Source: Candidatus Poribacteria bacterium (GTDB taxonomy: Bacteria; Poribacteria; WGA-4E; WGA-3G). Taken from it: a stretch of 64,000 nucleotides of DNA. The stretch covers positions 2,272,001-2,336,000 of the forward strand of contig OZ240248.1 of assembly GCA_965198235.1 (NCBI GenBank), written 5' to 3'. This document shows positions 11,977 to 41,019 of the stretch, piece after piece. The first letter of the stretch is position 1. Every line of letters starts with the position of its first letter. Made by a program: the position numbers and the translations under genes. The notes below the pieces were generated by a model. That model was not told the origin of the DNA. It made no database searches and saw only the letters and a program-made list of their open reading frames with translations.

Positions 11977-13269
11977 TTAGACGACTGTCTCAGGGAGTAT
12001 CGTCGCATCTTTCGGCACAATCACAATACCATCCCGGATGTAGTAATCTTCACCATCAAGATTATCAACTCTGTCTCGGTTGACGAGTACAGAATTATCA
12101 CCGATACGCGCATTTTTGTCAATGATTGCATTCTGAATGAGGCAATTTTGCCCAATGCCGATATTCGGGATGCCTGCCTGTGCGTTTTCCATCCGTATTT
12201 CATCGGACTCGTAATAGTCTGCTCCCATCAGGACAGACTGGTAAATCCGACTGCGACTGGAGATGATACTCCGGATCCCGACAATTGTTCTATCGATTTC
12301 AGAATCATCGATGATAGAGCCTTCAGCGAGGATTGAGGATCGAACGCTACTGCTGTTGACTTTGGTGCTCGGTAGATGCCGCCGGTTGGTGTAGATCGGT
12401 GCCTGCTCATCGTAGAAATTGAACGCCGGTGCAGTGTCGGTGAGCGCAATATTCGCCGAATAGAAGGAACGAATGGTCCCTATATCCTCCCAATAGCCGT
12501 CGAAAAAGTAGGCAGAAACCGGACGCGTTTGAATGCTTTTCGGGATAATATCCTTGCCGAAGTCGATGTTTGAGTCATCTCGAAGTACCTCTTGCAAGAC
12601 CTCTCTGTTGAAGATGTAGATTCCCATTGAGGCGATGTATTCTCTACCGTGAGGTTCAATACCTCGAGATGTAAAGACTTCGGGTTCAACGCGGAGCCGA
12701 TGCAGTTCCTCTTCGGTTTGGGGCTTCTCGACGAAATTAACGATACGTCCGTTCGCGTCCGCCTGAAGAATACCAAGCCCGCTCGTGTCCTCTTTTTTCA
12801 CCGGAATCACAGACACAGTGATGGCGGCGTTAGATTCGGTATGAACTTTGAGCATCTTGCGATAATCCATCCGATAGAGATGATCACCAGCGAGAATCAG
12901 GACATATTCGTCTGCGAAACGTGGGTTAAGAATGTAAGGTTCATTGTGTTTGACCGCGTCCGCTGTTCCCTGATACCACTCTTCGCCCATCAGCGTTTGT
13001 TGTGCGGCGAGAATTTGGACGAACCCGCGGCGGTATGTATCAAAGCGGTATGTCTGCGCGATATGTCGATTCAGGGAGACAGAGTTAAACTGCGTCAGGA
13101 CATAGATGCGTTCCAATCCTGAATGGAAGCAATTGCTAATCGGTATGTCCACCAGTCGAAATTTGCCTGCGATCGGGACACTCGGTTTCGCCCGGTCGCG
13201 TGTCAGCGGAAATAGGCGTGCGCCGCGGCCGCCTCCAAGGATAACTGCAATAACGTTCCCGTTACTCAT
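11977..13269 (-). CDS. glgC: Glucose-1-phosphate adenylyltransferase
   Basis: GGG.G.RLFPLT..RAKP, WYQGTADAV, F.EKP, ASMGIY, YWEDIGT. Confidence 0.97.
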   Translation of the reverse strand: MSNGNVIAVILGGGRGARLFPLTRDRAKPSVPIAGKFRLVDIPISNCFHSGLERIYVLTQFNSVSLNRHIAQTYRFDTYRRGFVQILAAQQTLMGEEWYQGTADAVKHNEPYILNPRFADEYVLILAGDHLYRMDYRKMLKVHTESNAAITVSVIPVKKEDTSGLGILQADANGRIVNFVEKPQTEEELHRLRVEPEVFTSRGIEPHGREYIASMGIYIFNREVLQEVLRDDSNIDFGKDIIPKSIQTRPVSAYFFDGYWEDIGTIRSFYSANIALTDTAPAFNFYDEQAPIYTNRRHLPSTKVNSSSVRSSILAEGSIIDDSEIDRTIVGIRSIISSRSRIYQSVLMGADYYESDEIRMENAQAGIPNIGIGQNCLIQNAIIDKNARIGDNSVLVNRDRVDNLDGEDYYIRDGIVIVPKDATILPETVV

Positions 13270-13302
13270 AAACGTTCTCCTTTATCCGTGCTTGTGGGTT
13301 TA

Positions 13303-13548
13303 GTCAACGTAGGTTGGGTTGAGTTGCAAATGTCCAAAAGTTCGTTTGTTTATACGGAGAATCCCGATGTTCGAGACCCTCTTCGTGTGGATATATCTAA
13401 CGAAACCCAACAAGCCAACCCGTGTAGCGGTAAAAATGTGTTGGGTTTCACTCATACTTCTTGGATTTCAGTCTCTATAAAATCTTGAAAGTGCTTTTCT
13501 ATGTGTGATGTTTCGTCAACTACCGTTCAACCCAACCTACGCGTTGAC
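13303..13548. repeat. MITE/REP-like element with nested inverted repeats
   Basis: Outer CGTAGGTTGGGTTGA (13308-13322) / TCAACCCAACCTACG (13527-13541); inner GAAACCCAACA / TGTTGGGTTTC. Confidence 0.75.
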
Positions 13549-13590
13549 CGCTGACAGCCGAAGGCTGACAGCCCTTATAAAACGTCGAAA

Positions 13591-14196
13591 CTATAAACTT
13601 CCCTTGGTAGATAGGACACCTGTAATACGTTCATCAAGACGTGTGGCAGCATGCAAAGCTTTCGCGACTGCCTTAAAGATGGCTTCAATGATGTGGTGTT
13701 GGTTTGTGCCGTAAGGGACGTTGATATGCAAAGTTGTCCCGCTATGGTTCACAAACCCATGAAAAAATTCTTCAGTGAGTTCAATATCAAAATCGCCGAC
13801 TTTTCCGTGACTCAGTGGTGTCTCGAAGTAGAGGTAAGGCCGTCCGCAAACATCCAAATCTACTTTGGCGAGGGATTCGTACATTGGGACGGTGAAACTG
13901 CCGAAACGTTGCATTCCCGTTTTGTCCAGCACCGCTTTTTGGAGGGCTTGCCCTAAGCAGATACCGACGTCTTCGGTCGTATGGTGTGCATCCACGTGTA
14001 GATCGCCTTCCGCTTGGATTTCCAGATCGAAGAAGCCGTGTTTGGCAAAGAGTTCCAACATGTGATCCAGAAATCCAACGCCGGTGTTAATATCGGATGC
14101 TCCAGTTCCGTTAAGGTCAAGCCGGAGACGGATACGGGTTTCTGCTGTTTCGCGGGTAATTTCTGCTGTTCTGTCCATATTGGTCTTTTTACTCAA
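13591..14196 (-). CDS. hisB: Imidazoleglycerol-phosphate dehydratase
   Basis: FLDHML, DAHHTTED, NQHHIIEA and STKG motifs; start is either TTG 14196 or ATG 14178. Confidence 0.97.
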   Translation of the reverse strand: MSKKTNMDRTAEITRETAETRIRLRLDLNGTGASDINTGVGFLDHMLELFAKHGFFDLEIQAEGDLHVDAHHTTEDVGICLGQALQKAVLDKTGMQRFGSFTVPMYESLAKVDLDVCGRPYLYFETPLSHGKVGDFDIELTEEFFHGFVNHSGTTLHINVPYGTNQHHIIEAIFKAVAKALHAATRLDERITGVLSTKGSL

Positions 14197-14251
14197 AAGT
14201 TCCTTTAGGTCTAAAACCCCGAATCTCTATATCGGGGATGTGAGACCTGCT
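14197..14251 (-). mobile_element. IS200/IS605-type terminal hairpin downstream of the IsrB relic
   Basis: AGGTCT..CCCCGA-loop-TCGGGG..AGACCT palindrome at 14207-14248, similar in style to the IS end at 63325-63350. Confidence 0.65.
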
Positions 14252-14803
14252 TTAGCAGTATCTAAAGTTGAGTCTTCTCAAAACCCGATAGGTGTTCGGT
14301 TGCGCTGTGAGAACAACTTGTTTACTGCTGTTAATTTCACTGAGTGTTAGGTATCCTCTTTGGTGTCCTGTGACGCGTAGGATTCCTTTTTTCACATGCT
14401 TGACTAATGTATTCTTTGGAACACCCAGACACCGCGTTCCCCCATATCGCGGACGCTTCCCGCCTTTTTGTGGATTCTGCCTGTGGAGTTCTCGTCTGCG
14501 TATCGGTATGGGTGAAATGCAGAAGATTTCAGGAGTCTCGACAAGACTACTACCGCCAAGTGTGTAATATGATAGACACCAACTATCGACACAATGTGCT
14601 TCAAAGGTGTTGGCAAGTTTCTGCGATGACTTCTTCAGGCCAAGTCTGTCTCGGATTTCTTTGGTTTCCCACCCCTGAAGCGTCAGCAATTCCCATCGCT
14701 TCTGGATTTCACCATAGAACCATTGCTTTCCAACTTCAAGTGGACTAAATGACTGATTCCACTTCCTTGCACGTTCTATGGTTCTGGCTTTGATGTCCTC
14801 AAC
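14252..14803 (-). pseudogene. isrB: 5'-truncated IsrB (RRXRR/OMEGA family RuvC protein of IS200/IS605)
   Basis: VEDIKA (RuvC-II), FSPLEVGKQWFY, AHCVDSW (RuvC-III), RRELH...KGG.R..YGG; no HNH; PLMP, RuvC-I and the upstream omegaRNA are absent. Confidence 0.7.
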
Positions 14804-35677: not shown

Positions 35678-35935
35678 CTCATGTTTCTATTATAAAACAA
35701 ATTGTCCTTAAAGCGCAACTCTTTTCAGATTTGCCGTAGGAGGGATCTCCGAATCTTGGGGAAACCCCCAAGCAAAAACACCCCTCTTCTGTAGGATTCT
35801 CACTGCGAAGCACTCCCGGTCGCGATTTTCCTTCAAAACCAACAGAAACCTAAAACTGAATGACCTTGGAGATTTCTAATATTCGGTTGGCATTTTTTCA
35901 CTTTGCATGTTATCATTACCCTCAAGTAAATCGCA

Positions 35936-38401
35936 TTGTGGAGGAAAAAAGTAATGCTAAGACTGAACCAAATGCTTGGTAATCCCTCTTACAACCACAG
36001 TTTTGCTTATGGAAACAAGGATGATGAGGCCGAGGTATATAATAACCACGGCATTGCTTACATTAAAAAAGATAAACTTGAACAGGCAATCGTATCCTTT
36101 AGCAAGGCAATAGAATTGGACCCTAATTACGCTAACGCCTATTGTAATCGTGGTGCTGTTTACTACTACAAAGGCGAGTATGAAAAAGCGATTATAGACT
36201 ATAACGAGGCGATCGAATTGAATCCACGTCATGTTATTACCTACAACAATCGAGGAGTCGCTTACGACAATAAGGGTGAGCAGGAAAAAGCTATTGGAGA
36301 TTTTACAAGAGCAATAGAACTCAAATCTGATTATGCTGATGCCTACAACAACCGCGGTAACGCCTATGGTAGTAAGGGTGAATATGACAGAGCAATTATA
36401 GACTATACGGACGCAATAGAACTCAAAGTTAACTATACTGAAGCTTATAACAACCGCGGTAACGCCTATGGTAATAAGGGTGAATATGACAGAGCAATTA
36501 TAGACTATACGGACGCAATAGAACTCAATACCAAATTTGTCGATGCCTATCACAATCGCGGGACAGCTTACTACAATAAAAACGATTTTGACCGCGCTAT
36601 CAAAGACTATAGCATGGCGATAAATCTCGAACCTAATTTCGCCGATGCCTATTACAATCGTGGGACGGCTTACGAGAGAAAAGGCAACTGTGATCTCGCC
36701 ATAGAAGACTCTACTAAAGCAATAAAACTGAAGCCAGATTTCGCCAATGCCTATCACAATCGCGGGATAGCTTACGGTAAAAAAGGTAATTATAACCTTG
36801 CTATCAAAGACTATACCAAAGCAATAGAACTAAATCCAAATCGTGATATAACCTATTACAATCGCGGCAATGCTTATGGCGATATTGGCGATTATGACTG
36901 TGCCATTGAAGACTATACCAAAGCAATAGAACTAAATTCAGATTTCGCCAACGCCTATATCAATCGCGGCAATGCTTATAGTAATATTGGCGATTATGAC
37001 TGTGCCATTGAAGATCATACCACAGCAATAGAATTAGATCATAATCCTGCAGATGCTTACAACAACCGCGGAGTAGTTTACGGCAAAAAAGATGATGCCA
37101 ACCATGCCATTGAAGACTATACTAAAGCAATAGAACTAAATCCAAATCGTGATATAACCTATTACAATCGCGGGGTAGTATGGCTACACTTGCAAGATTG
37201 GGAAAAAGCCAGAGCAGACCTGACCGCTGCTAAGAAAAAGGGCATGGATATCATTGCAGCATTCCGTGACGGTTACAAAAATGTTGAGGTTTATGAGAAG
37301 CGATACCGTGTTAAGTTGCCGGAAGACATTGCACTCCTGCTGACACAGCGTCGGCGGACCCGTTACCCGAAGACGCAAAAAGTATTGGATGCCGATGGAA
37401 ATCCGCTTGAATCACCGAATGTGGTGAATTTACGCTCGCAACTTCGCAATGCTGGTACACCGTTAGGCAAGTACGTCAAAACAAAACCCGCTTTCGGTAT
37501 CAACACAACACCGACTGAAGTGTTTGTCGTAGATAAAACGACGCGGGATAAACTCATTGCAGCGCACCTTTCATCTGCTGATATTTTAAAGCCGTTTTTG
37601 CACGGACAGGATATAAGACGTTGGCATGTTGACACACCACATCAATGGTTAGTTTTTACTTACCGCGGTATAGCGATAAACGATTATCCAGCAATCCTGA
37701 AGCACTTGGAAAAATATCGAGAATCCCTGAGCAAAAAAAAAGGCAAACAGAAATGGTATGAGCTGCCAGCATCTATCAACAACGTAGAGCGTTTTGCGCG
37801 ACCGAAACTCGTCTGTCCAGACACCTATAACTATCAGACTTTTGCAGTTGATACTGCCGGTTATTATTACGGAAATACGTCCTATCTTATCCCAACCGAG
37901 GAAACGTGGCTCTGCGGTCTCCTCAATTCTCGCACTGTGGAGTGGTTTTATTCGCAGGTGTCGAACCAATTGACGATTGATTATCTTCGGGCGCGTAGTG
38001 GGTATATCCAACAGATTCCGATTCCGGACCTCACGTCGACGCAGAAGGCACTCATCGCCAAACTCGTTGATTACCTAATCTATCTTCAGCAGCAGCCAAC
38101 GATAAATAGCAGGGATTTGGCGCACGCCCGCGATCGTGTAATGCTCGGATATTTTGAACGAATTATTGATGGCTTAGTTTATGAGGCTTACCTGCCCGAA
38201 GATCTGCATAAAGGGGACAAACACTTCTTCCAACCGTTGTTGGAGGAACAATTGCCTTCGTGCGAGGAAATTCAGGGTGATAAAATGACCGCATTACGAG
38301 ACATCTTTGAGTTGCTATATGAAAGAACGCATCTCGTCCGGCGAAACCTTTATTATCTGGATAGTGTAAAAGTAGTTCGTATCATTGAGGGTAAAATTTG
38401 A
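35936..38401 (+). CDS. TPR-array protein (12 repeats) fused to a TaqI/Eco57I-like target-recognition domain
   Basis: 34-aa repeats AY.NRG.AY...G.Y..AI.DYT.AIEL; C-terminal KPFL.G.DI.RW, YPAI..HL, KWYEL, L.GLLNS, I.QIPIP, IDGLVYE.Y; no FxGxG or NPPY motif. Confidence 0.85.
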   Translation: MWRKKVMLRLNQMLGNPSYNHSFAYGNKDDEAEVYNNHGIAYIKKDKLEQAIVSFSKAIELDPNYANAYCNRGAVYYYKGEYEKAIIDYNEAIELNPRHVITYNNRGVAYDNKGEQEKAIGDFTRAIELKSDYADAYNNRGNAYGSKGEYDRAIIDYTDAIELKVNYTEAYNNRGNAYGNKGEYDRAIIDYTDAIELNTKFVDAYHNRGTAYYNKNDFDRAIKDYSMAINLEPNFADAYYNRGTAYERKGNCDLAIEDSTKAIKLKPDFANAYHNRGIAYGKKGNYNLAIKDYTKAIELNPNRDITYYNRGNAYGDIGDYDCAIEDYTKAIELNSDFANAYINRGNAYSNIGDYDCAIEDHTTAIELDHNPADAYNNRGVVYGKKDDANHAIEDYTKAIELNPNRDITYYNRGVVWLHLQDWEKARADLTAAKKKGMDIIAAFRDGYKNVEVYEKRYRVKLPEDIALLLTQRRRTRYPKTQKVLDADGNPLESPNVVNLRSQLRNAGTPLGKYVKTKPAFGINTTPTEVFVVDKTTRDKLIAAHLSSADILKPFLHGQDIRRWHVDTPHQWLVFTYRGIAINDYPAILKHLEKYRESLSKKKGKQKWYELPASINNVERFARPKLVCPDTYNYQTFAVDTAGYYYGNTSYLIPTEETWLCGLLNSRTVEWFYSQVSNQLTIDYLRARSGYIQQIPIPDLTSTQKALIAKLVDYLIYLQQQPTINSRDLAHARDRVMLGYFERIIDGLVYEAYLPEDLHKGDKHFFQPLLEEQLPSCEEIQGDKMTALRDIFELLYERTHLVRRNLYYLDSVKVVRIIEGKI
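36033..37230 (+). repeat. 102-bp-period coding tandem repeat (TPR array)
   Basis: Units 4 and 5 nearly identical at DNA level; the 8/9 and 11/12 junctions share an identical stretch; boundaries approximate. Confidence 0.85.
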
Positions 38402-39849
38402 AAATAACTAACATTGAAATCAAAAACTTCAGAGCCTTTCCGAAAACCTACCAAATCAAGTTGCATAATGCGGGAAAAAATTTACTGGTTTACGGTGAAA
38501 ACGGGAGCGGGAAATCGTCGTTGTATCTTGCACTAAAGTATTTCTTTGAATCTGGTGTAAACGAAGATAAAGAGGAAGGTAAAAATACTGAGTTTGAAAA
38601 CCATCAGAATATCTTTACCGAGGATCCTGGACATATCAAACTTCGTTTCCGTTCAGATCAACCCCAAAAGCAAGAAATCTACAAGTGGTCAAAGGACGTT
38701 AAAGAAACGAATAACAATCTGATTATTGAAATATCAAAGGCAAGTGGATTTCTTGACTATAAAGACCTTCTGGGGGTGCACTATCTCCAACCCGAAGGCG
38801 AATCCGTGAATGTGTTCGATTTGTTGGTTGAAACCCTTTTAGCAAATACGGTTAACCCGGTGACAGATCGGACCCTTGCTGAGGCGTGGGATGACATTCA
38901 AGAACCCTATCCGCGCAGGAGTGCGAAACACCAAATTGCCTCCCTTGAACAACGGGTAGAAGTTTTTAACGATGAGTTAGTAAATAGATTAGCGGATCTG
39001 CGTCCGAAAGTACGCGAGATTCTTCGCAGATTTGGATACAAAGTTGACCTTAACCTTAACTTAGACCCTAAAGGGGTTAGATACAATCGAGAGAACAAAT
39101 CTCTTGAGAACCAGCAGATTTTATTAAACGTCAAATTCTTTGACAAAGATATATCTGAACGTTACCTTTTATTGAATGAAGCAAAGTTGTCAGCAATTGC
39201 GATTGCTATCTATTTTTCATCAATCCTGTGCTTGCCAGAACCAAAAGGAGGTATGAAGATTCTCGCGTTGGATGACGTGTTAATCGGCTTGGACATGCCA
39301 AACCGCTTGCCAGTACTCGATATTCTAAACGACTACTTCGCAGACTATCAGATCTTTTTGACGACTTACGATAAGGCGTGGTATGAGATCGTCAAACAGC
39401 GAACAGATCAAAAGGATTGGAAATACACTGAATTTTATTCCAAGGCAACCGATGAACACGAAATCCCAGTTTATGTGGAAGATAAAGCATACCTTGACAA
39501 GGCGAAAGAATATTTTGATGTCAATGACTACAAAGCCTGTGCAATTTATGTTCGCACCGCTTTTGAAGCGACAATCAAGCAATATTGTGAGAAAAAAGAT
39601 CTCTGTATTAAGTACCGCGAAAATCCAAAAGAATTGAGAAGTGAAGACTTCTGGGTGCCCATAAAAATGGAAAGAGACGAAGCGGGTCTTCTGCTTTTGG
39701 ATCTAAGGGTTGTCGACGAAATTGAACTGTATCGAAGCATCATCCTAAATCCGCTCAGTCACGCTGCAATTGCGAACATCTATAGAAAAGAACTGGAGGA
39801 TGTTATTAACGCGGTGGAGGAACTCGAAACTGCGTTGGCAAATGTTTAA
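38398..39849 (+). CDS. ABC-type ATPase (PrrC/RloC/AAA_13-like) with a HEPN-like C-terminal domain
   Basis: I.NFRAF, GENGSGKSS, LNEAK (degenerate signature), LALDD..IGLD, TTYD; C-terminal A..VR..FE and RSIILNPLSH; TTGA overlap with the upstream stop. Confidence 0.78.
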   Translation: MKITNIEIKNFRAFPKTYQIKLHNAGKNLLVYGENGSGKSSLYLALKYFFESGVNEDKEEGKNTEFENHQNIFTEDPGHIKLRFRSDQPQKQEIYKWSKDVKETNNNLIIEISKASGFLDYKDLLGVHYLQPEGESVNVFDLLVETLLANTVNPVTDRTLAEAWDDIQEPYPRRSAKHQIASLEQRVEVFNDELVNRLADLRPKVREILRRFGYKVDLNLNLDPKGVRYNRENKSLENQQILLNVKFFDKDISERYLLLNEAKLSAIAIAIYFSSILCLPEPKGGMKILALDDVLIGLDMPNRLPVLDILNDYFADYQIFLTTYDKAWYEIVKQRTDQKDWKYTEFYSKATDEHEIPVYVEDKAYLDKAKEYFDVNDYKACAIYVRTAFEATIKQYCEKKDLCIKYRENPKELRSEDFWVPIKMERDEAGLLLLDLRVVDEIELYRSIILNPLSHAAIANIYRKELEDVINAVEELETALANV

Positions 39850-39881
39850 GCTATTGAGAAGATTCGGATTATGGAGAAAAA

Positions 39882-40178
39882 ATGACGAAAGAACTTAATG
39901 AAAAATGTGCCGAAACTTACTATAATCGCGGGTTGGCTCACAGCAAAAAGGGCGAACTTGATAAGGCTATTGCAGATTATACGAAAGCGATAGAACTGAA
40001 ACCCGATTATGCCGATGCCTATTACAACCGCGGTGGGGCGTGGTTACGCCTGGGAGAACGAGAAAAAGCGAAATCAGATATGGCAACTGCTAGAGAGATG
40101 GGGAGCGATGCCATCATCGCCTTAGACAAGATACTACAAGACTACGATCGCGCATGGAAGACCCTCGGTAATGTATGA
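39882..40178 (+). CDS. Small TPR protein (2 repeats) in the antitoxin position upstream of Doc
   Basis: Two TPR units plus tail ALDKILQDYDRAWKTL; ATGA overlap with doc. Confidence 0.8.
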   Translation: MTKELNEKCAETYYNRGLAHSKKGELDKAIADYTKAIELKPDYADAYYNRGGAWLRLGEREKAKSDMATAREMGSDAIIALDKILQDYDRAWKTLGNV

Positions 40179-40546
40179 AATATTTGACAATTGAAGATAT
40201 TCTAATCATTGCTGAGACCCATGTGGATGACCATCAGATTTTGCATAAAGATCGATTGGACTATTTAGTCGAAGCAGTTAGCGCAAAATTTGGCGATACA
40301 GAACTGTATCCAACTCTATTCCAAAAAGCCTCTGTATATGCCCATCACATTATTACAGGACACATATTTTTCGATGGGAATAAACGTATCGGTCTAACGT
40401 GCGCGCTCCGTTTTTTAGAATTGAACGGTTATTCCCGTCTTTCCAACATTGATGATTCGATTATCGAACTCGGTTTTAAGATTGCGGACGGAACCATAAC
40501 TGATATTGAGGTCATCGCGGCGCGTATACAGTCATGGATTTTGTAA
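40175..40546 (+). CDS. doc: Fic/Doc family (death-on-curing) toxin
   Basis: LYPTLFQKA and HIFFDGNKR, the Doc variant of the Fic motif. Confidence 0.88.
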   Translation: MKYLTIEDILIIAETHVDDHQILHKDRLDYLVEAVSAKFGDTELYPTLFQKASVYAHHIITGHIFFDGNKRIGLTCALRFLELNGYSRLSNIDDSIIELGFKIADGTITDIEVIAARIQSWIL

Positions 40547-41019
40547 CAAACGTATGTTGATATACCGGTGAGTTTAAACCCAAATCCATCCTTCGTAACA
40601 GGTCTATAATCCTGCAAATCCTTGAATCCTGTAAATCTTGATTCAGACAATTAACACCTACATTTCCCGATTAAATTCTTAATCTTCATTTTCAGAGTAA
40701 CTTTTTAGAAACCTCCTATCACATCCGTCGAAAACCCAGTCATAATCTATGTTTACAACTTTTTTTACACCCACCCTCTTTCAGATTTTACTCTGAATAC
40801 TCTGAAACTCACAACATTTTCTTTTCCTTATGTCTGAGTCGTGTCTCCGTAATCGCGACCTTACTGATCACTAACTACTGATTGCTGATGTCTGACAACT
40901 GAGTGGCTCTGCCCAAAAAGTGACTTGACAAAACCTGTCTAAAATGATAAATTGACTTCAAACAAGGGAACCCGAAAACGACACCCTTAGTTCTTAAAGA
41001 TTAAAGAAAGGATGGCAAC

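Follow-up and report, generated by a model that had tools for sequence, protein, structure and literature searches.

Four co-oriented open reading frames (ORFs), here called g1 to g4, lie at positions 35936–40546 of the window, a stretch of 64,000 nucleotides (nt) from contig OZ240248.1 of Candidatus Poribacteria bacterium (assembly GCA_965198235.1, positions 2,272,001 to 2,336,000 of the forward strand). The host is a sponge symbiont, and its own genome is labelled G000 (contig C1, 5.2 Mb). All four genes are listed on the plus strand. The first, g1 (35936..38401), encodes a protein of 821 amino acids (aa) in which tetratricopeptide repeats (TPRs) are joined to a target-recognition domain, without an additional N-terminal head. 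The second, g2 (38398..39849), was assigned from its ORF and from profile searches as an ABC ATPase of 483 aa with a C-terminal domain of the HEPN fold. The product of g3 (39882..40178; 98 aa) consists of two TPRs and a conserved C-terminal helix and is a putative Doc antitoxin, while g4 (40175..40546; 123 aa) encodes, by sequence, a Doc-family toxin. The TGA stop codon of g1 overlaps the TTG start codon of g2 at 38398–38401 (TTGA), and the TGA of g3 overlaps the ATG of g4 at 40175–40178 (ATGA). The gap between g2 and g3 is 32 nt, and GGAG precedes the ATG of g3. The four genes are AT-richer than their surroundings, with a G+C content of 0.40–0.45 over 36000–40500 compared with 0.47–0.53 in most flanking 500-nt bins. 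They are inserted between housekeeping loci, namely a gene for a LolA-superfamily protein upstream (E 2.8e-14) and one for a mannose-6-phosphate-isomerase-like protein downstream (E 3.3e-11), both of which are conserved and syntenic in relatives at 82–97% identity. A preliminary description of this DNA had reported the same layout, overlaps, base composition and insertion, and had read the four genes as one candidate new defence operon. The layout was reproduced in full; the reading as one system was not. The locus very probably comprises two independent two-gene modules, g1–g2 and g3–g4, which are neighbours by chance.

The N-terminal part of g2 matches the Pfam families SMC_N, AAA_23 and AAA_15, and a profile of 49 diverse g2 relatives matches the Rad50 head with an E-value of 4.5e-15 over profile positions 1–316. 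The Walker A, signature and Walker B motifs expected of an ABC ATPase are present and conserved. In these relatives, residues G33, N35, G36, G38 and K39 of the Walker A motif (G33–S40, 38494..38517, plus strand) are invariant, as are D292 and D293 of Walker B. The domain with the four-helix, up-and-down HEPN fold (residues ~364–483; 39487..39846, plus strand) carries R386, E390, S454 and H455. Among the aligned family members, R386, E390 and H455 are invariant (89/89), and the motif can be written as R-x3-E-x64-S-H, with S454 directly before H455 in the window protein. Position 446 varies in the family (R, L, K, T, I, Q), and its members retain the pattern [N/H]451-x3-H455. Modelled with AlphaFold2 from 67 sequences, residues 342–483 are all-helical, with a pLDDT (predicted local distance difference test) score of 83.3. 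The eight best VIA-align matches of this model are all HEPN proteins, with Z of 9.1–11.5 and a root-mean-square deviation of 2.3–2.8 Å over 100–110 residues, although Z values below ~13 may reflect a common helical-bundle arrangement alone. Of the 49 relatives, two were matched by DUF4145 and one by HEPN, and precomputed Abi_C matches exist for some; we take these three families to be members of the HEPN clan, in part on the authority of PMC3710099. The earlier assignment of g2 as an ABC ATPase with a HEPN-fold tail is thus upheld by the Rad50-head profile, the AlphaFold2 model and VIA-align.

This architecture recalls PrrC, the analogy drawn in the preliminary description. In the relevant passages of PMC3710099 and PMC2610378, PrrC, an anticodon nuclease that accompanies the type Ic restriction–modification (R-M) system EcoprrI, has an N-terminal ABC ATPase domain and a C-terminal HEPN-superfamily nuclease with an R-x3-E...H set, as g2 does. 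It is encoded in or next to the R-M operon and silenced by an operon partner, a role predicted likewise for the tail of g1. Its triad is given as Arg320-Glu324-His356, with a spacer of 31 residues, and the nuclease motif of RloC as Arg-X3-Glu-X36-52-His, often with Ser before His (passages of PMC2610378). RloC, a wobble-nucleotide-excising tRNase with an AAA_13 match, resembles g2 in its Rad50-like ABC head and in a similar C-terminal Arg/Glu/His motif. Unlike RloC, g2 has no coiled-coil/zinc-hook insert and is shorter (483 aa compared with ~770 aa), and the two nuclease domains do not align. Unlike PrrC, g2 remains below the AAA_13 cut-off (17.4 versus 36 bits; E 0.0019, residues 11–70 only; 27 of the 49 relatives match weakly), and its spacer is 64 residues instead of 31. 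An hhalign comparison of g2 with an RloC alignment reached 94.5% probability, confined to the C-terminal half of the ATPase. Membership of g2 in the PrrC/RloC family was accordingly rejected, given an AAA_13 score far below the cut-off and C-terminal domains that do not align with RloC. The analogy thus stands for architecture and genomic context and fails for family membership: g2 appears to be a PrrC/RloC-like protein outside that family. Among 121 genomes sampled from the phylum, RloC itself turned up in only 2. The partners differ as well. PrrC is associated with the type I HsdMSR complex, whereas the partners of the g2 family are Eco57I-type methylases, which are Type IIG-like and often accompanied by an HKD/SNF2 helicase; in the window, the partner is reduced to TPRs, a recognition domain and a tail.

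The TPRs of g1 match TPR_1 with an E-value of 4.6e-108 over 11 repeats, and the array (36035..37174, plus strand) consists of 11 DNA units of 102 nt (repeat family D2, period 102) with 11 TPR_1 stretches. It is followed by a TaqI_C-type target-recognition domain at residues 552–696 (37589..38023, plus strand; E 8.9e-16; 58.7 bits versus a cut-off of 26.5) and by a helical tail at residues ~726–821 (38111..38398, plus strand), which lines up with the very C-terminal end of the cognate methylases and is the predicted docking surface for g2. Among Pfam profiles, no match to Eco57I, N6_Mtase or MmeI_Mtase and no methylase or nuclease domain was found in g1, and the PADLOC Type IIG profile (REase_MTase_IIG) covers it only at profile positions 852–1100 of 1148. 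Residues ~480–821 align with the C-terminal ~340 residues of Eco57I-type methylases encoded directly before g2 relatives (best match 40% identity), and 47 of 55 such matches end within 6 residues of the methylase C-terminus. Because its C-terminal ~340 residues align to methylase ends, g1 is understood as the tail of a cognate methylase, joined to TPRs that take the place of its other parts; this end-to-end alignment also confirms the earlier suggestion that TPRs had replaced the usual N-terminal part. On a conjugative plasmid of Nostoc, the gene for a TaqI_C-only protein of 338 aa overlaps by 4 nt that of a g2 relative (46% identical to g2), with no methylase near this pair. The plasmid protein is 40% identical to the C-terminal part of g1 over 324 residues.

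Homologs of g1 range from 757 to 1758 aa, a spread accounted for by a TPR number of 6 to 33. A non-TPR head is present in 13 of 17 homologs, and of ten heads tested, nine are TIR and one is FRG; the remaining four are headless, as is g1 of the window. About 40 ORFs of the own genome carry the TPR type of g1, including fusions to trypsin-like peptidase, FRG, UPF0175 and possibly HNH. A g1 paralogue in that genome (1012 aa; C1:1039876-1042914, L152) begins with 426 residues that are not TPRs and that give a weak HNH_5 match (23.6 bits; cut-off 27.5).

The coupling of g1 and g2 is regular within the phylum. Of 151 genomes sampled from it, 78 gave a g2 relative, and the surroundings of g2 relatives could be compared at 21 Poribacteria genome loci (56–80% identity). 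A homolog of the g1 C-terminus ends exactly at the start of g2 in 19 of these 21; the exceptions are one locus without upstream DNA and one g2 fragment. The own genome holds a second intact pair (C1:1039876-1044357) and a degraded one near C1:3291372. An Eco57I-type gene stands directly upstream of the g1 homolog in five of the 21 loci; in L006, one FRG-TPR gene intervenes, and in L019 a Type ISP-like gene precedes the g1 homolog. At the chromosomal site of the window pair, only 258 nt separate the LolA-like flank from g1 in the window, whereas in L002 an Eco57I-type gene of 1281 aa occupies this interval.

A complex of g1 residues 475–821 with g2, modelled from alignments that had 33 and 49 rows, scored 0.87, 0.86 and 0.83, compared with 0.00 for the best of three controls. 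Of 80 solved complexes, 58 attained the 0.86 mark, as did 2 of 110 mismatched pairs; these counts are only a rough guide for the author-made alignments used here. The model runs share at least 89% of contacts, with a partner pLDDT of at least 77. In the predicted interface, g1 residues 726–821 face g2 residues 54–57, 107–115, 152–157, 182–199, 222–226 and 278–283, which are inserts of the ATPase and lie outside the HEPN domain. The model supports binding of the g1 tail to the g2 ATPase.

The g2 family extends far beyond Poribacteria. At E<=1e-3 it comprises 2586 cluster representatives, of which 526 remain at E<=1e-30; matches over the whole length extend to identities as low as ~30%. Gene neighbourhoods were collected for 85 distant loci from metagenomes and viral contigs, of which 74 could be evaluated (10 lacked upstream DNA and one an ORF); exemplar neighbours were identified with Pfam and PADLOC, and the others were classed by BLASTP to these exemplars (E<=1e-6). 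The gene directly upstream encodes an Eco57I-type methylase in 50 of the 74 loci, GmrSD in six, McrC in two and a short prokaryotic Argonaute (pAgo) partner in one; 13 loci have another or unknown gene, including two MzaB-MzaC loci, and two have a gene on the opposite strand. The junction between methylase and g2 relative is a 4-nt overlap in 31 of 50 cases, and in 24 of the 50 the second gene upstream encodes an HKD/SNF2 helicase. These neighbourhoods suggest, from sequence data, that the g2 family guards several unrelated defence systems. Individual loci show g2-type ATPases directly after a short pAgo system (Aga REase-PNTD and pAgo_I; L035:5195-9464) and directly after MzaB-MzaC (L062:2871-9914 and L064). 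Only five loci with g2 relatives are on viral contigs. Two IMG/VR contigs (L106 and L107) carry a trio of HKD/SNF2, methylase and g2-type genes, with g2 relatives 42% identical; these trios may be prophage-borne copies or misclassified host DNA.

The second pair, g3–g4, has a different composition. The g3 protein matches only TPR families and the NCBIfam profile TPR_END_plus (E 1e-10); neither Phd/YefM nor any other DNA-binding domain was detected with Pfam or NCBIfam, and there was no PADLOC match. Its model (pLDDT 92.6) shows two TPRs and a long C-terminal helix at residues 76–94. In the tail (residues 76–98; 40107..40175, plus strand), R90, A91, W92, K93, L95 and G96 are invariant. The Doc/Fic motif follows the consensus H-x-F-x-[DN]-[AG]-N-K-R, and g4 carries it as H-I-F-F-D-G-N-K-R at residues 63–71 (40361..40387, plus strand). 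The assignment of g4 as Doc is given by TIGR01550 (55.7 bits, cut-off 38.65) and Fic (38.9 bits), together with matches to solved Doc-family proteins (E 2.4e-8 and 4.6e-5). That a TPR-only protein precedes a Doc protein, as stated in the preliminary description, therefore agrees with the NCBIfam and Pfam matches.

Of 151 genomes sampled from the phylum, 92 gave a Doc match, nearly always as a single copy, and 59 gave none. A g3-like TPR gene lies directly upstream of Doc in all 29 loci that were fetched, and when L001 and L016 are added, the ATGA overlap, the conserved g3 tail and the Doc motif H-I-F-[FL]-D-G-N-K-R are all kept in 31 of 31. At 22 of the 29 fetched loci, the gene of the downstream flank lies no more than 1.5 kb away. 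Homologs of g3 range from 98 to 488 aa, with a varying number of TPRs. A 333-aa homolog (L126:503-1504) has, as judged by eye, a TIR-like head before the TPRs and the conserved tail. Phd neutralises Doc through its C-terminal helix, and in g3 the modelled C-terminal helix is likely to be the neutralising part, as in Phd-Doc. As in Phd-Doc of phage P1, a type II toxin-antitoxin system, a small gene precedes and overlaps that of a Doc-family protein, whose H-x-F-x-D-G-N-K-R motif is intact. Unlike Phd, g3 consists of TPRs and a conserved tail with no DNA-binding domain detected, and unlike the patchy Phd-Doc, g3–g4 is syntenic and widespread in one phylum.

Whether the two pairs belong together was decided by gene order in other Poribacteria, in which g1–g2 and g3–g4 are distributed independently. 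Doc follows g2 in only 2 of the 21 Poribacteria g2 loci. Both genes occur in 55 of 151 genomes, compared with 47.5 expected for independence. Where they share one contig (25 genomes), they are adjacent in three, within 5 kb in two (fragments) and at least 116 kb apart in 20. Viewed from Doc, g2 stands upstream only in L123 among the 29 loci, with a remnant in L120, and in 12 of them the LolA-like flank lies within 1.5 kb upstream of g3–g4 with no g1–g2 between. No g3 relative was present among the 85 distant g2 loci, and their sole Doc match lies on the opposite strand, far from g2. These distributions speak against the earlier proposal of a single defence system built from all four genes, with TPR sensors that would gate an HEPN RNase and a Doc kinase, both translation-targeting; we consider it improbable. 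It is favoured by the common orientation of the genes, by the 32-nt gap with no terminator-like site on the plus strand between g2 and g3, and by an RNA-library contig of 3221 nt that covers 37144–40364, along with contigs in three other runs that cross the g2/g3 junction; such contigs, however, cannot establish a single transcript. In addition, one TPR unit of g3 is 77% identical at the DNA level to one of g1, and PrrC/RloC-type proteins often occur with Fic/Doc-like toxin genes in Table 1 of PMC3710099, the part of that source that bears on this point. Moreover, genes for a TPR-UPF0175 antitoxin, each with a DUF3368 PIN-type toxin gene behind it, follow g2 in L005 (L005:9465-11361) and twice in L006 (L006:9761-11581 and 12557-14438). 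A TPR-UPF0175 gene likewise follows in L020 (L020:9702-10997), and the own genome has one at C1:4467966-4468976. TPR-UPF0175 is a second kind of TPR-fused antitoxin in Poribacteria. Because such antitoxin/toxin pairs follow g2 elsewhere too, some functional tie between modules is possible; on the other hand, TPRs are habitually fused to conflict domains in this lineage, which may account for the neighbourhood with no mechanism in common. The g1–g2 pair was probably inserted, with or without a methylase gene, beside an older resident g3–g4 pair.

Each pair also admits readings of its own. The g1–g2 pair might be an accessory of an R-M enzyme encoded elsewhere, with g1 as a spare specificity or adaptor subunit and g2 as its guard, as PrrC is for EcoprrI. 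The genome offers candidate enzymes, with 22 Eco57I-type matches (20 above the family cut-off), and the methylase neighbours described above, in the five Poribacteria loci, one gene further in L006, at the same chromosomal site in L002 and in 50 of 74 distant loci, point the same way. None of the 22 genes adjoins the window pair, however, the Nostoc pair has no methylase nearby, and g1 is devoid of any methylase motif, so no HsdS-like joining to a methylase is seen in any tested sense; such a role is unlikely. The pair could instead be a decaying, functionless remnant left after loss of an R-M gene, a view that draws on the methylase gene of L002 at the site where the window has 258 nt and on the split g2 copies in L004, L016, L019 and one locus of the own genome. 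We regard it as highly improbable, given that both ORFs are intact in the window and most loci, that identity is 56–86% across genomes with every catalytic residue kept, that a stand-alone pair exists on a conjugative plasmid and that the stretch is present in RNA libraries. The TIR and FRG heads on g1 homologs likewise argue for an evolving functional unit. For the other pair, g3 might act as an adaptor and direct a domesticated Doc kinase to some target in the cell, which would make g3–g4 a conserved housekeeping regulator with no antitoxin. The near-single copy at one syntenic site in 92 of 151 genomes, which is unusual for mobile toxin-antitoxin modules, the varying TPR number of g3 (98 to 488 aa) and the copy with a TIR-like head fit this idea. 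The Phd-Doc layout, in contrast, is matched by the upstream position and small size of g3, by its invariant C-terminal helix and by the 4-nt overlap seen at all 31 loci; the Doc motif is intact, and the pair is missing from 59 of 151 genomes. The adaptor role is therefore rather unlikely.

The best overall explanation, to which we assign a probability of roughly 0.6, is a PrrC-like abortive-infection pair, g1–g2, located beside a TPR-antitoxin/Doc pair, g3–g4. Gene linkage, domain identities, conserved residues and the predicted g1–g2 interface are its direct support; from these we infer the RNase activity, its target, the trigger and the binding of g3 to g4. The g1–g2 pair would be an abortive-infection pair detached from an R-M operon, in which g2 is a latent HEPN RNase under the control of an ABC ATPase switch, with tRNA as the most likely target. 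The tail of g1 would dock on the ATPase inserts of g2 and hold it silent. A disturbance at g1 would then cause the ATPase to switch on the RNase, so that translation stops. At the recognition domain, the trigger could be foreign DNA or an anti-restriction protein; on the TPRs, it could be a phage protein. Taken separately, this PrrC-like mechanism, which is drawn by analogy, has somewhat less than an even chance of being correct. In the other module, g3–g4 would be a type II toxin-antitoxin-like pair, in which the invariant C-terminal helix of g3 neutralises Doc. A broader view is tentative and rather doubtful: pairs of the g1–g2 type could be autonomous anti-phage systems that need no restriction enzyme, with the restriction-enzyme tail as a decoy or sensor for anti-restriction proteins or foreign DNA, and with TPRs and TIR or FRG heads adding sensing or killing. 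Sponge symbionts would also have joined TPRs in this way to the antitoxins of Doc and PIN-type toxins, and TPR arrays would represent a lineage-wide wiring of toxins to protein cues.

Several results speak against this explanation. Besides the low Z values given above, a Foldseek search with the g2 C-terminal model returned no match at E<=0.001, its top hits being HEPN proteins at E 0.08–1. Among the HEPN-clan Pfam profiles, g2 reached only 16.5 bits with DUF4145 (cut-off 23.1). The canonical HEPN Rx4-6H motif is absent, R446 lying 8 residues before H455; the spacer of 64 residues between R-E and H is longer than that of PrrC or RloC; and hhalign of the g2 C-terminal domain against the RloC nuclease domain gave a probability of 2%. 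The recognition domain of g1 has a conservation of 0.83, compared with 0.77 for the rest of the protein, and thus shows no excess variability. A hypervariable recognition domain was rejected on this basis, and DNA-sequence reading by g1 is uncertain because the domain is not variable as in specificity-diversifying enzymes. No methylase gene adjoins g1–g2 in the window, and several copies are decaying, with g2 split in L004, L016, L019 and the own-genome copy at C1:3291372. The independence of the modules is challenged by the TPR-UPF0175 genes behind g2. Finally, the RNA evidence consists of contigs only, for which DNA carry-over is possible.

The statement in the preliminary description that this combination was not recognised as a named system has held up, since PADLOC 2.0 gave no whole-system match for the four genes. 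The partial matches were those of g2 to AriA (residues 1–110) and mad3 (residues 2–326), limited to the ATPase, and a partial one of g4 to the candidate PDC-S23. Among known systems, the Type IIG-like Eco57I/MmeI methylases (PADLOC REase_MTase_IIG; C3a139 'HKD+Snf2') come closest to g1: residues ~480–821 are homologous to their recognition domain and tail, and they show the same 4-nt coupling to a g2-type gene. Unlike them, g1 has no methylase or nuclease domain and bears TPRs instead, with TIR or FRG heads in its relatives. The appending of a suicide effector to a first-line system is an already established idea. In the passages of 10.1101/2024.01.29.577857 and, for BREX, PMC12839542 that deal with embedded or backup effectors, an ABC-ATPase suicide effector is appended to a first-line DNA-targeting system, as g2 relatives are after Type IIG-like, GmrSD, McrBC, pAgo and Mza systems. 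Coupling of an ABC-HEPN protein to the C-terminus of a methylase, or to a partner with a recognition domain only, is not named in these passages. TPRs serve as the phage-sensing part of a TIR system in 10.1101/2023.05.26.542521. In the literature, we found no account of the g2 family coupled to methylase tails, of a TaqI_C-only or recognition-domain-only protein coupled to an ABC-HEPN protein, or of a TPR-type Doc antitoxin, although an earlier supplementary listing of any of these is possible; the g2 family, for example, may already be listed under APECO1_4465.

If the proposed explanation is correct, the g2 family would represent a large unnamed third lineage of PrrC-like guard nucleases, with 526 sequence clusters at E<=1e-30. 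Besides the tails of Type IIG-like methylases, its members would attach to GmrSD, McrBC, pAgo and Mza systems. The interface between g1 residues 726–821 and the ATPase inserts of g2 would be open to direct testing. Such a guard would outlive its restriction enzyme by keeping only the enzyme tail and gaining TPR and TIR parts. The g3–g4 pair would provide a Doc antitoxin of a new build, composed of TPRs and a short helix and conserved across the phylum.

Expression signals around the locus are modest. The best sigma-70-like site 5' of g1 (35887..35916, plus strand) has 10 of 12 matches and a TG extension, a consensus match only; it is weak evidence of a promoter because 17 promoter-like sites were seen compared with 13.2 expected in shuffles. 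Terminator-like sites numbered 4, compared with 4.6 expected. Direct repeats bounding the four-gene island were looked for, and none were found. The intergenic stretches on both sides (35735–35830 and 40526–40726) contain short dispersed repeats with dozens of genomic copies, one unit being palindromic. Two candidate signals were set aside, an RNA-contig joint (35826>40608, side 25) and a spike of RNA depth at 40526–40726, both of which coincide with these repeats. The downstream repeat region reaches a contig depth of 39–99x in all four sponge metatranscriptomes and could be a repetitive extragenic palindromic (REP)-like element or a small RNA. Part of the upstream repeat recurs elsewhere in the own genome as a small tandem array of three exact copies of 42–43 nt, spaced 53–54 nt apart (C1:1375568-1375716).

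The own genome also contains about 13 paralogues of ~990–1060 aa with an Eco57I-type methylase match, for example at C1:1891585, 2349223, 2639029, 3298773, 3527736, 3613912, 4101958 and 4852511, an unusually high copy number for 5.2 Mb. A relative of these methylases in L019 combines a Type ISP coupler, N6_Mtase and Type_ISP_C, with no helicase or nuclease.

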